Shown piece by piece: positions 7,880 through 36,740 of a stretch of 60,018 bases of DNA (position 1 is the first letter of the stretch; the number at the start of each line of letters is the position of its first letter). The notes below the pieces were generated by a model that made no database searches, had not been told where the DNA came from, and worked only from the letters and a program-made list of their open reading frames with translations. This DNA is from a virus (lineage: Duplodnaviria > Caudoviricetes): IMG/VR virus record IMGVR_UViG_3300020083_000009, positions 1-60,018 of that record; one strand, given 5' to 3'. The translations under genes were made by a program, and so were the position numbers.

Positions 7880-8407
7880 TTAGATCCACTCTGGTCTCCG
7901 TTGTGGAAGACGAAGATAATTGCTGGCTACCCATGGTTTTGATGCAATGTACATTTTATAAGCAGTGAAGGTATCAATGCTTGTATCTAATTTATACTCA
8001 TCAGGCATTGCCCTGACAAATGATGTAGGTTCTTTTCCGCTACGACCTTGAATATCTGACGTTGGAAAGATTTCACTTGCATGTAGCAATGTGGTAAAGC
8101 AGGTATGTGTTTTACCATAACGTGCAGAATATTCTGCACACAAGGCAAATCCATGAGCAATCAACCATCGCCAATTATTGACATAGGATGATGCCCAGAT
8201 GGTACATGGATGATTACGAAAGGCACCCCTATCAGTAGCGTAAGGTGTGCCATCTGCTTTTGGAAGAGTGCCAAATCCATGCCCCCATTTGTCGGATGCA
8301 ACGATGGACAGCATTTGACAAGTTTCCAAGGGCATCTTGACAATATGCTTGTCAGGTAGCACAATGGCAGACTTGTAGGGATCGGGGTCAGTGACAAAAA
8401 TGTTCAT
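7880..8407 (-). CDS. pyrimidine-dimer DNA glycosylase (DenV)-like family protein
   Basis: MNIFVTD...DKHIVKMPLETCQMLS...NHPCTIW motif. Confidence 0.75.
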   Translation of the reverse strand: MNIFVTDPDPYKSAIVLPDKHIVKMPLETCQMLSIVASDKWGHGFGTLPKADGTPYATDRGAFRNHPCTIWASSYVNNWRWLIAHGFALCAEYSARYGKTHTCFTTLLHASEIFPTSDIQGRSGKEPTSFVRAMPDEYKLDTSIDTFTAYKMYIASKPWVASNYLRLPQRRPEWI

Positions 8408-8559
8408 AGTGGTCTTGGATTCCCACATAGTATAGCACTAGGCATCTCACAATGGGCAAGTGCCCTTGCTTCAAATTGTGTCGTTGCCTCAACAATTCGT
8501 TTATGATACTTGGATCCAGTCTCTTTAAGTTTGTAGGTAATTTCCCATTTCCTTGTCAT
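8404..8559 (-). CDS. small hypothetical protein (51 aa)
   Basis: MTRKWEITYK...; ATGA overlap. Confidence 0.6.
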   Translation of the reverse strand: MTRKWEITYKLKETGSKYHKRIVEATTQFEARALAHCEMPSAILCGNPRPL

Positions 8560-8574: not shown

Positions 8575-8916
8575 TCAATTGTTTTTTACTTTCCTTGGTC
8601 TTCCTCTCTTTTTAGGTTGGTCAGTTGTCTCTGCAACTCTACTTGTACGCTTATTAAATTTAGGTTTAGATACTCTTCGTACTGGTTTCCCTTCACTAAC
8701 TTCTGAAGATTCTCCAATTGTAGAATAGACAAGATCAAGTTCATTTTGGAGTTCATTTCGATCAATCCTAACCTCATTTTTTTTGAGTTTGTAACGGGTT
8801 AAATGCTTTTCTAGATGTGTTTCATTTTGAAACCAACAGATCTTATGATCTCCTTGGTCAGTGTACTCCAACCGTACTGGAAATCCAAAATGAGGAAATA
8901 GTTCTTCAGTAGTCAT
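8575..8916 (-). CDS. hypothetical protein with basic KKRGRPRK tail
   Basis: FP.RLE...CWFQ..HLEKH..RYKL; AT-hook-like C-terminus. Confidence 0.7.
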   Translation of the reverse strand: MTTEELFPHFGFPVRLEYTDQGDHKICWFQNETHLEKHLTRYKLKKNEVRIDRNELQNELDLVYSTIGESSEVSEGKPVRRVSKPKFNKRTSRVAETTDQPKKRGRPRKVKNN

Positions 8917-9340: not shown

Positions 9341-9991
9341 TTACTTTTTAAGTTTGTATGTGTAGATGTGTTTACCTGGAGTGTCAACGTAGTGTGCCTC
9401 TCCAGTTTCTAATGCAGTCTTCAATTCTTGTGCAAAGGGTTTCAATGCCTTAACACCATACTTGTTCTCATAATATGTTCTGATTGACTTATCATGAAAC
9501 GTGCGTCCACGATACTCAATCAATTTACCCTTTGAGGTTAAACCATGATATTCAAAGTTTGATGCCTTGTAGATTGTACCACAGTGACCATGGTGACTGT
9601 CTGCATAAGAGACTACAGTTTTGTAGCCAGTATTTTTCTTCATCCAACGTAGTGTCTTACCAATAAAGTAACTCTCAGTGTTACGTGGAGTCTTATCAAT
9701 ACAACAGAGGCGGCGAAGTTCAACAATATCCTCCTCTCGGTCAGCATACTTCTTCCAAGTATTTGCCATACCAAGAGAACCATAGATCATGGCACCAATA
9801 AGATTATTATCTGCCATGAGTGCAAACACATTTGATATACGAAGACCATTGACATTACCAGAATAATGCCAAGTCTCTACAAAATCTCTTACAATTTGAA
9901 TGTTTGATGGGGCAACGACAAACTGCTTTACGTTACATGAGGTATAATCCTCATCCCCGTAAAACATGTCCATAAGCATATTTGACTTCAT
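9341..9991 (-). CDS. Mom-like (GNAT-fold) DNA adenine modification protein
   Basis: WHYS...LIGAMIYG...ELRRLCC...NTESYFIGKTLR...VVSYAD..GH.GTIYKASNF.Y.G. Confidence 0.8.
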   Translation of the reverse strand: MKSNMLMDMFYGDEDYTSCNVKQFVVAPSNIQIVRDFVETWHYSGNVNGLRISNVFALMADNNLIGAMIYGSLGMANTWKKYADREEDIVELRRLCCIDKTPRNTESYFIGKTLRWMKKNTGYKTVVSYADSHHGHCGTIYKASNFEYHGLTSKGKLIEYRGRTFHDKSIRTYYENKYGVKALKPFAQELKTALETGEAHYVDTPGKHIYTYKLKK

Positions 9992-10508
9992 CTGCGGTCT
10001 CTCTAGCAGTGTTAATGACTATATCACGTAGCTGAGCGTAATCAATACCGATCCATGCCCAGAAGGCTTCTCCTCCGATGTAGCGGATATTGTCCTTAGT
10101 GTAATCGAAAGAATCACCAAAAGCAATAGCAAAGAAAGCTTGAGACTCATGTTGTACGGTGGTACGAATAAGTTTTTCAAGTGAATCATTCTTATGAGTC
10201 CCAGTTTGTGTGTTTTTGTTTGCCTTAAGTTGACCTTCCCACTCTTCATTGATGAAAAGATCCACACCTAAAACCTTTCGTTGCCCCTTGTCAGTATTGC
10301 GGACATTATTTCCACAGGTCTCTGCAATTTCTTGAAGAGCATAACCAAGACAAGTTGTAAAGGTCTTCTCAAAGGTTGCCCAGATGAGAACCTCTGGAAC
10401 TGCCTCTTTGATAATGTTAAGGTTTTTAGCATGAAGATTCTTGTAGATCTTCATGACGGTCTTCTGTTTAATTGGATGTAAAATTGCTTCAATTAAAAGT
10501 TTATTCAT
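9951..10508 (-). CDS. type II restriction endonuclease-like PD-(D/E)xK nuclease
   Basis: TTCLG.ALQEIA...GVDL...QLKANKNT...GEAFWAWIG, recalling PmeII/Eco47II/TdeIII-like REases. Confidence 0.65.
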   Translation of the reverse strand: MNKLLIEAILHPIKQKTVMKIYKNLHAKNLNIIKEAVPEVLIWATFEKTFTTCLGYALQEIAETCGNNVRNTDKGQRKVLGVDLFINEEWEGQLKANKNTQTGTHKNDSLEKLIRTTVQHESQAFFAIAFGDSFDYTKDNIRYIGGEAFWAWIGIDYAQLRDIVINTARETADEVKYAYGHVLRG

Positions 10509-10720
10509 TTCATAAAAGCCTCTAGCCCTTTGATCTTAGCAGCTTTTTTAACGGTGCGTCTACCCTTTGTGGCAGTTTTTTTACTGGCACTCTTGATGTA
10601 GTTTTTAGCTTCGTCCAAGGTTTTAAACACCTTGTCCTGCTGCCCCATGTGAATAATCATATATTCTTTACCAAAGGGGACAGCAGCCCACTCCTGGTTA
10701 CTTGACACGAATCCTTCCAT
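10505..10720 (-). CDS. conserved cyanophage hypothetical protein
   Basis: WAAVPFG..YMIIH.G.Q motif. Confidence 0.75.
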   Translation of the reverse strand: MEGFVSSNQEWAAVPFGKEYMIIHMGQQDKVFKTLDEAKNYIKSASKKTATKGRRTVKKAAKIKGLEAFMK

Positions 10721-10740
10721 GTGTTATGCTGTGAACATTC

Positions 10741-10771: not shown

Positions 10772-10963
10772 ATGATGAATCCAAATGAAATCAAGCTAGA
10801 GTCGATTGATCGCATGTTTCATTATGAGGCTCAAGCAAGATACTTAGACGAGTTGGATCGTGAACCCGCGATTGAAATGGCAAAGTGCTATCTCAAGCTG
10901 TATCTCAAGCAACAGGAGGTTATTGCAGACCTTGGTGGCTTGGGGTTGACAGACGAAGATTGA
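10772..10963 (+). CDS. nblA: NblA-like phycobilisome degradation adaptor
   Basis: 63 aa, two-helix pattern LESIDRMF.YE...LD...A.EM.K.YLKLYLKQQEVI. Confidence 0.6.
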   Translation: MMNPNEIKLESIDRMFHYEAQARYLDELDREPAIEMAKCYLKLYLKQQEVIADLGGLGLTDED

Positions 10964-10974
10964 AGTGTTAAGAT
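10946..10974 (+). promoter_or_regulatory. sigma70-like promoter
   Basis: TTGACA-N17-TAAGAT. Confidence 0.65.
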
Positions 10975-36328: not shown

Positions 36329-36401
36329 TGGAGAATAGGGGACTTGAACCCCTGACTTGCAGCTTGCAAAGCTGCCACTCTACCAACTGAGTTAATTCCC
36401 C
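36329..36401 (-). tRNA. tRNA-Ala(UGC)
   Basis: Cloverleaf GGGGAAT..., anticodon arm GCAGC-TTTGCAA-GCTGC, GGTTCAAGTCC. Confidence 0.95.
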
Positions 36402-36506
36402 TGGCGGCCCTTTTGTTTAATGGAGGAGTAGCCGATCCCCACTATGAGAATAGGATTTGGACTCCTATTCTGTTTGTAGGAAGAACCAGACATGTCCAGA
36501 TCTTCC
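36402..36506 (-). ncRNA. candidate structured RNA between tRNAs
   Basis: Two hairpins plus a possible pseudoknot ending in CCA. Confidence 0.4.
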
Positions 36507-36507
36507 A

Positions 36508-36579
36508 AGCCCTCGACTGGATTTGAACCAGCGACCAATGGTTTACAAAACCATTGCTCTACCACTGAGCTACAAGGGC
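36508..36579 (-). tRNA. tRNA-Thr(UGU)
   Basis: GCCCTTG..., anticodon arm AATGG-TTTGTAA-CCATT, GGTTCAAATCC. Confidence 0.95.
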
Positions 36580-36656
36580 AAAAAACCTATTTAGAAAATT
36601 TTTGGCGGGATTTTTTTCCGACCTTTTTTGAAACTAAAAGTCAATTTTGGTTTAGG

Positions 36657-36740
36657 TAGGGCGAGGGAGACTTGAACTCCCACGGGCATACGCCCAACAG
36701 ATTTTAAGTCTGGTGTGTCTACCGATTCCACCACCGCCCC
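36657..36740 (-). tRNA. tRNA-Leu(UAA)
   Basis: Anticodon loop CTTAAAA, long variable arm GGGCGTATGCCC, AGTTCAAGTCT. Confidence 0.95.

Follow-up and report, generated by a model that had tools for sequence, protein, structure and literature searches.

Lytic viruses can mark their own DNA and direct nucleases against unmarked DNA, as in the restriction-modification (R-M) systems of chloroviruses and in phage T4, which combines hydroxymethylcytosine (hmC) with EndoII and EndoIV. Self-marking by groups other than methyl is coupled to restriction in the phosphorothioation (Dnd/Ssp) and 7-deazaguanine (Dpd) systems, which are multi-gene bacterial defence islands. The closest described arrangement to the one analysed here is the phage R-M pair that Iyer, Anantharaman, Krishnan, Burroughs and Aravind predicted in 2021 for jumbo phages, consisting of Mom and a restriction endonuclease (REase)-fold domain (PMC7824862). 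Here we describe a two-gene locus of a 60,018-bp IMG/VR viral contig (IMGVR_UViG_3300020083_000009; the whole contig is referred to as the window; CheckV completeness 29%), in which a relative of type II REases is encoded upstream of, and overlapping with, a member of the Mom family. We propose, with a probability of about 0.6, that this pair is a mobile two-gene R-M-like cassette of lytic phages that is based on momylation.

The locus resembles the systems of PMC7824862 in the association of a Mom-family GNAT with an REase-fold endonuclease and in the presumed logic, according to which momylation would shield phage DNA while the nuclease is turned on host DNA or on that of a superinfecting phage. 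Unlike the domain fusions of jumbo phages in PMC7824862, the two proteins are here the products of separate, overlapping genes. The carriers are T4-like cyanophages (about 170-200 kb) and a group of low-GC phages, and the origin of the nuclease is traceable to a classical type II family whose members have a C5 cytosine methyltransferase (MTase) as partner. In contrast to chlorovirus R-M and T4 hmC, which employ methylation or pre-replicative base replacement, the cassette would use a post-replicative, site-specific hypermodification of adenine N6, and unlike Dnd/Ssp and Dpd it consists of just two phage genes, with a classical type II nuclease as its basis. It differs from classical type II R-M in that no cognate S-adenosylmethionine-dependent MTase was found in the cassette contigs or in Synechococcus phage DSL-LC03 (Kyanoviridae, 172,805 bp, circular), the closest named relative of the window. 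The features of the locus are as follows.

10771 to 10743, minus strand: candidate sigma70-like promoter by sequence, TTGACA-N17-TATATT with a TG-extended -10 (11/12 consensus matches)
10505..10720, minus strand: 71-aa open reading frame (ORF), phrog_33194 (unknown function), first gene of the transcription unit (ORF list and PHROG)
9951..10508, minus strand: 185-aa AvaII/EcoO109I-like PD-(D/E)xK type II REase homolog, short form (profile comparisons)
10224..10331, minus strand: predicted active site of the nuclease, E60 (10329-10331), D83 (10260-10262), Q93 (10230-10232) and K95 (10224-10226) (alignment)
9951..9991, minus strand: out-of-frame overlap of the nuclease 3' end and the Mom 5' end (ORF list)
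9341..9991, minus strand: 216-aa Mom-family GNAT, predicted DNA adenine modifier (Pfam, PHROG and PDB matches)

The 216-aa protein is a clear member of the Mom family by its matches to Pfam PF25680 (score 117.8 bits, cut-off 27.1; E 6.4e-34; 2-187 of the 202 profile positions aligned), to phrog_1384 (E 6.3e-58) and to the Mu Mom crystal entry, PDB 8bv8, named ‘methylcarbamoylase mom’ (E 9.1e-9), so that the Mom-like character ascribed to it in a preliminary description of the window holds. Nine residues are functionally important in Mu Mom, W48, H58, Y59, R111, S124, D149, R151, Y159 and W181 (PMC13219725), of which six (H58, Y59, R111, S124, D149 and Y159) are invariant in a four-sequence alignment that includes the window protein. 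Mu Mom modifies deoxyadenosine (dA) in an SAS context, post-replicatively on double-stranded DNA, and uses Gly-tRNA(Gly) as donor (PMC13219725); the acetyl-CoA scheme adopted in the preliminary description is superseded by this donor chemistry. By homology, the window Mom may form the Mu-type N6 adduct (N6-carbamoylmethyl-dA) at SAS. As in Mu, a gene lies upstream of mom and overlaps its start. In contrast to the present pair, however, Mu Mom is a solitary, late, anti-restriction protein controlled by the zinc-finger protein Com, while the overlapping upstream gene is here a nuclease homolog and the promoter resembles the early sigma70 type. An RNA structure akin to the com/mom hairpin of Mu was not supported at the nuclease/Mom overlap (z-score 0.21).

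The family assignment of the upstream gene relies on comparisons at the profile level. The 185-aa protein has 41 close homologs, nearly all metagenomic, the sole named one being the ‘type II restriction endonuclease’ of DSL-LC03. In the alignment of the window nuclease with 29 of its close homologs (A1, 30 sequences; A2 and A3 are widened alignments) D83, E91, G92, Q93, K95, N99, T100, Q101, T102, G103, T104, F149 and W150 are invariant in 30/30, and position 60 is E, D or Q. The members of A1 give weak family matches only, six to PF14511 (best 0.0024) and five to PF09520. A profile search of 1.84 billion representatives yielded 86 proteins, mostly of a clade of approximately 250-270 aa with about 70 extra N-terminal residues; the names of these distant homologs are uninformative throughout, and among ten that were scanned two reach the cut-off of PF14511 (RE_EcoO109I), three are sub-threshold for RE_TdeIII and three have no match. 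The phage clade aligns with this long bacterial clade (about 260 aa) over 174 columns (hhalign, 99.6%, E 1.4e-24), and with 17 cyanobacterial PF14511 proteins (from 20 loci, three with ORFs >335 aa having been excluded) at 88.8% for A1 (E 2.5e-6), 94.7% for A3 and 97.1% for A2 (E 6e-11). The blocks aligned with the PF14511 proteins are T-x-x-G...E-x-x-A, G-x-D, x-x-K-S/T and G-x-x-F-W. In a language-model comparison RE_Eco47II and RE_EcoO109I/PmeII (0.94-0.95) come closest among the named Atlas clusters.

The active site of AvaII consists of E123, D147, Q161 and K163, where Gln replaces Asp/Glu and is a metal ligand (PMC7337904). E60, D83 and Q93xK95 of the window nuclease match this pattern with nearly the same spacing, and with EcoO109I (PDB 1wtd) the protein has the G(x)(x)FW motif in common besides the profile-level homology to PF14511 members. 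Unlike AvaII and EcoO109I (roughly 230-270 aa), the phage protein has 185 aa, is without the N-terminal region and has Mom, not a cytosine MTase, as partner. No significant direct sequence match was found between the window nuclease and the AvaII and EcoO109I structures; PDB profile searches with A1, A2 and A3 gave chance-level rows only, save for a 17-residue GxxFW match to EcoO109I (E 4.7), and a PDB search with protein P0046 had no match. We conclude that the 185-aa protein is, at the profile level, a remote and short relative of AvaII/EcoO109I-like PD-(D/E)xK type II REases (Pfam PF14511 with the neighbouring PF09520 and PF09553), its PD-(D/E)xK character having been suspected from its motifs, and a putative nuclease.

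The two genes are linked far beyond the window. Mom lies downstream of the nuclease in 62/84 phage and metagenome loci combined, counted over viral and metagenome collections that partly share contigs. The 26 IMG/VR nuclease loci comprise 20 with a full Mom, one with Mom cut at the contig end, one on a contig ending inside the nuclease and four without Mom; in the metagenome collection (58 loci) Mom is present in 41, the sequence stops within the nuclease gene in three, one extends just 172 nt downstream and 13 are without Mom. Nuclease and Mom overlap in 64/64 loci having both ends, down to 44% nuclease identity and always in the same relative frame. The overlap measures 38 nt in 47 loci, 41 nt in six (window included), 35 nt in six, 32 nt in three, and 47 and 74 nt in one each. 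Divergence of the nuclease is paralleled by that of Mom (33 distinct pairs, Mantel r 0.885, a value reached in 0/2000 permutations), and in a divergent clade (L014-L024) the two are the only genes, among the neighbours tested, that are common with the window. The co-occurrence survey called for in the preliminary description thus speaks for a linked pair. Among the longer proteins no fusion of nuclease and Mom turned up, which is weak evidence. Klebsiella phage RaK2, considered as an example of a Mom-REase fusion, was rejected, its Mom being a solitary 194-aa gene.

Each gene also occurs by itself. Phages often carry Mom and no nuclease (263 records with Mom against one with the nuclease). In cyanophage S-SSM7 a solitary Mom (L029, 3001-3624) is located just after a tRNA cluster and psbA. 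The branch of this Mom is long and falls, weakly supported, within the clade of nuclease-linked Moms, a placement that a lost nuclease could explain. Conversely, the nuclease is found without Mom in 17 loci (four viral, 13 metagenome), where its ORF is intact (204 aa) and retains the catalytic motif. Since a metagenome contig of GC 0.30 (L155), whose nuclease is 44.5% identical to that of the window, carries Mom with a 41-nt overlap, Mom-plus and Mom-less states both occur within the low-GC group; L155 has one GGWCC in 3.1 kb.

The expectation, voiced in the preliminary description, that type II REases of this kind are paired with MTases is borne out by the bacterial relatives. A bacterial locus search with A1 gave one locus, and the long clade was then reached via a search of cyanobacterial genomes, in which it was present in 24/401 sampled. 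A C5 cytosine MTase homolog is encoded within the 1.5-kb flanks in 15/16 cyanobacterial loci with a near-full nuclease gene, the remaining one being located at a contig end; in a Rivularia locus the neighbouring MTase matches PF00145 at E 8.8e-72. Mom was found near the long-clade nuclease in 0/27 cyanobacterial loci. The reading we favour is that the ancestors of the phage nuclease served classical R-M systems with C5 cytosine MTases. The window, in which no MTase had been recognised previously, has no match to the MTase families PF00145, PF02086 and PF01555, a result that is weak alone because the contig is 29% complete. The complete genome of DSL-LC03 was therefore searched, as were four cassette contigs (45-122 kb), with 0 matches to PF00145, PF02086, PF01555, PF02384 and PF05869, which argues against a cognate MTase elsewhere in the genome as the source of protection.

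TdeIII and Eco47II cut GGNCC. AvaII cuts GGWCC and EcoO109I cuts RGGNCCY (PMC7337904). The contigs of phages that carry the nuclease alone contain no GGWCC in 74,137 non-redundant nt, where 20.4 (Markov) or 21.2 (composition) are expected (P 1.3e-9), and GGWCC is the most depleted of 512 5-mer pairs. GGNCC was rejected as the avoided word, given that GGSCC is not depleted in the same contigs (31 vs 18.9 expected). The 673,309 nt of phages with both genes contain 196 GGWCC, 365 being expected (ratio 0.54, rank 2/512); the window has 20 vs 30.2 and DSL-LC03 29 vs 79.2. The nuclease probably cuts GGWCC, a site suggested by these avoidance statistics together with the family, and the avoidance fits an AvaII-like site. 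The A of GGACC, standing in G-A-C, has the SAS surroundings, so that marking of every such site, on one strand only, would be within reach of a Mom like that of Mu. A flank preference of the SASNY type was not seen at the GGACC sites retained in nuclease-plus-Mom phages.

Other words are avoided as well. In the window, short palindromes without an SAS adenine are rare (GGCC 7 vs 42.9, CCGG 1 vs 29.5 and GTAC 135 vs 220.6 expected), and in DSL-LC03 (L086-L094) CCGG occurs 2 times vs 68.5 expected and ten 6-bp palindromes (5.7-14.5 expected each) are absent. The avoidance of SAS-free palindromes may reflect host R-M pressure beyond the relief that Mom could provide. The low-GC nuclease-only contig G406 (L079-L081) has 27 GATC vs 135, 43 CATG vs 119 and 27 CTAG vs 74.5 expected; its CheckV completeness of 14% at 40.6 kb implies a jumbo-sized genome.

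We propose the following mechanism. The upstream gene would encode a type IIP-like endonuclease of the PD-(D/E)xK kind, short and belonging to the AvaII/EcoO109I lineage, and Mom, whose gene overlaps that of the nuclease translationally, would take the place of the MTase by hypermodifying adenine N6 of phage DNA post-replicatively. The most likely target is GGWCC, the sole adenine of which, in G-A-C, would fit the SAS context of Mu Mom, so that every GGWCC on phage DNA would be markable on one strand. The nuclease would cut unmodified DNA, be it that of the host chromosome or of a co-infecting phage, while incoming phage DNA would already be modified on arrival. The proposal builds on what the analysis shows, namely the family assignments of both proteins, their linkage and co-divergence, the GGWCC statistics and the lack of MTase matches in a complete relative; that the adduct blocks cleavage by the nuclease we infer.

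Several points weigh against this proposal. The window 185-aa protein alone reaches no threshold by sequence in Pfam, PHROG, NCBIfam, PADLOC or PDB, and no REase family matches it at E<=0.1. R151, which is essential for Mu Mom (PMC13219725), aligns with His in the window Mom, and conservation is likewise lacking at W48 and W181; this enzyme may differ from that of Mu in activity, motif and product. The nuclease is the first of both genes under one promoter, and a mechanism delaying it was not identified. Since GGWCC has a single A:T pair, Mom could mark one strand only, which may not suffice to block an AvaII-like dimer. GGWCC is still depleted when Mom is present, owing perhaps to incomplete protection or to another cause. 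S-WAM1, one of the nuclease-free Kyanoviridae, is also depleted in GGWCC (39 vs 58.9, ratio 0.66, rank 4/512), which implies that a host AvaII-type R-M system can cause partial depletion without a phage nuclease and that partial depletion is not diagnostic. Finally, the nuclease-only contigs belong to one phage group of low GC (0.28-0.31), with CheckV estimates that imply very large genomes, so that the total purge of GGWCC is essentially one evolutionary observation.

The momylation-based cassette can be put in a more specific form, to which we give somewhat less than even odds. According to this, the pair would be a true type II R-M system whose ‘M’ is the tRNA-dependent aminoacyl-transferase Mom, and an AvaII-like G^GWCC nuclease stemming from a 5-methylcytosine (m5C) R-M system would be restrained by a single central N6-carbamoylmethyl-adenine. 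The system would be offensive, directed at host or rival DNA, and the Mom-less sisters, which either lost Mom or never had it, would survive only by purging GGWCC.

Among the other explanations, the one that fares best, although we consider it unlikely, is that the two genes are independent and merely travel together, Mom being an anti-restriction shield as in Mu and the nuclease degrading host DNA or acting as a selfish element, with self-protection by site depletion or timing. That solitary Mom is the rule in phages, S-SSM7 being an example, agrees with independence, and so do the 17 Mom-less loci, where self-protection is evidently achieved by total site avoidance, and the depletion of GGWCC both in Mom carriers and, without a nuclease, in S-WAM1. 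The conserved out-of-frame overlap, the co-divergence of the two proteins and the occurrence of the pair in otherwise unrelated contexts are, however, not what independent genes would lead one to expect, and GGWCC is retained at 0% of the expected number without Mom vs 54% with Mom.

It is less probable still that the avoidance of GGWCC is imposed by host AvaII-type R-M systems alone, the phage nuclease having another specificity or being a captured host gene irrelevant to the phage's own sites. The related bacterial clade is frequent among cyanobacterial genomes, nuclease-free S-WAM1 is depleted to 0.66, and the nuclease-only contigs form one lineage (96-100% identity among G406-G409). The other five nuclease-free Kyanoviridae, however, have ratios of 0.99, 1.02, 1.08, 1.36 and 0.96, so that 5/6 range from 0.96 to 1.36 vs 0.37-0.66 in 6/6 cassette contigs (one-sided Mann-Whitney P 0.002, not phylogenetically corrected). 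The avoided word, moreover, fits the GGNCC-type sites of the nuclease family, and two unrelated phage groups avoid GGWCC only together with the nuclease.

We regard it as very improbable that the 185-aa protein is a catalytically inactive partner that binds DNA or regulates, either as a specificity or recruitment factor of Mom or as a translational coupler like Mu Com. For this reading, some 70 N-terminal residues of the bacterial enzymes are lost, the gene overlaps the mom start as com does in Mu, and position 60 is not strictly acidic. Against it, D83, Q93 and K95 are invariant, and AvaII genuinely uses Gln as a metal ligand; intact copies persist where no Mom exists to regulate, and the genomes of these Mom-less phages are purged of GGWCC, an effect not obviously to be expected of a protein that only binds. 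A zinc-finger or Com-like feature is absent.

In the window itself, the coordinates and motifs reported earlier for the two overlapping ORFs were confirmed, CLGYALQEIA, LGVDLF, GQLKANKNT and GGEAFWAWIG being present in the 185-aa translation. The 41-nt overlap is measured to the first in-frame ATG of Mom, and use of any of the three further in-frame ATGs downstream would shorten it. The promoter that had been placed over both genes stands as a candidate, with a -35 hexamer that is invariant in 6/6 aligned related loci while the spacer and the -10 (TATATT, TATCAT or TAGGAT) vary, but it does not directly precede the nuclease gene, as the 71-aa ORF intervenes and overlaps the nuclease gene by 4 nt (ATGA). 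Early promoters of T4-like cyanophages are sigma70-like. The 71-aa ORF was rejected as a component of the cassette; its conservation is limited to the close clade (L001-L013) and it is thus not a core part. Two more TTGACA-N17 promoter-like sites, at 10702-10730 and 10946-10974 on the plus strand, are located in the same short intergenic region, face the opposite way and would serve divergent small ORFs.

Beyond Mom, on the same strand, lie a 113-aa ORF (8575-8916) with an AT-hook-like basic tail, KKRGRPRKV (Pfam AT_hook sub-threshold at 0.046), and an N-terminus matching phrog_3790 and phrog_1609, both of unknown function, and a 182-aa pyrimidine-dimer DNA glycosylase of the T4 endonuclease V type (7880-8428; Pfam Pyr_excise 1.1e-13; phrog_624 1.2e-79) that shares 91% identity with the DSL-LC03 copy. 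Elsewhere on the minus strand three consecutive very large ORFs (3278, 1769 and 2343 aa; 14007-36276) presumably encode tail-fibre or other myovirus structural proteins, and a tRNA cluster is located at 36329-36740. A tRNA-Gly that could serve Mom was searched for in the window and not found, its tRNAs being Ala(tgc), Thr(tgt) and Leu(taa) only.

Since a Mom-REase R-M pair was already predicted in PMC7824862, the kind of system is not new, and the self-marking idea put forward for the window, which the computational results favour with the activities and the protection predicted from sequence, is likewise not the first of its kind. A literature search for a nuclease-Mom pairing found only that prediction. 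In GenBank the DSL-LC03 genes are labelled ‘type II restriction endonuclease’ and ‘Mom-like DNA modification protein’; in a term search of the text of the paper on this phage Mom does not occur and ‘restriction’ appears only with regard to the evasion of host restriction (PMC10611076). In the text of PMC12801897 cyanophage mom is treated as a lone counter-defence gene. What is new is the occurrence as separate overlapping genes in T4-like cyanophages, a nuclease whose descent can be followed back to m5C R-M, the prediction of GGWCC as its site and the nuclease-only sister lineages; the nuclease family itself may already be among the listings of that paper or of earlier ones from the Aravind laboratory.

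Mom has so far been viewed almost wholly as a defensive shield, and its role as the ‘M’ of an R-M system is a prediction of comparative genomics for fusion proteins. The present cassette is small and tractable, with two genes in about 1.2 kb, and it offers a concrete prediction, cleavage at GGWCC that is blocked by a modified GAC adenine, along with a natural control in the sister phages that have the nuclease alone and are without GGWCC. If the proposal is true, a restriction enzyme sensitive to N6-carbamoylmethyl-adenine would be available for mapping this mark, and a classical type II nuclease could swap its MTase for a chemically unrelated hypermodifying enzyme. Abundant aquatic cyanophages would in that case gain a weapon for the degradation of host DNA or for competition between phages.

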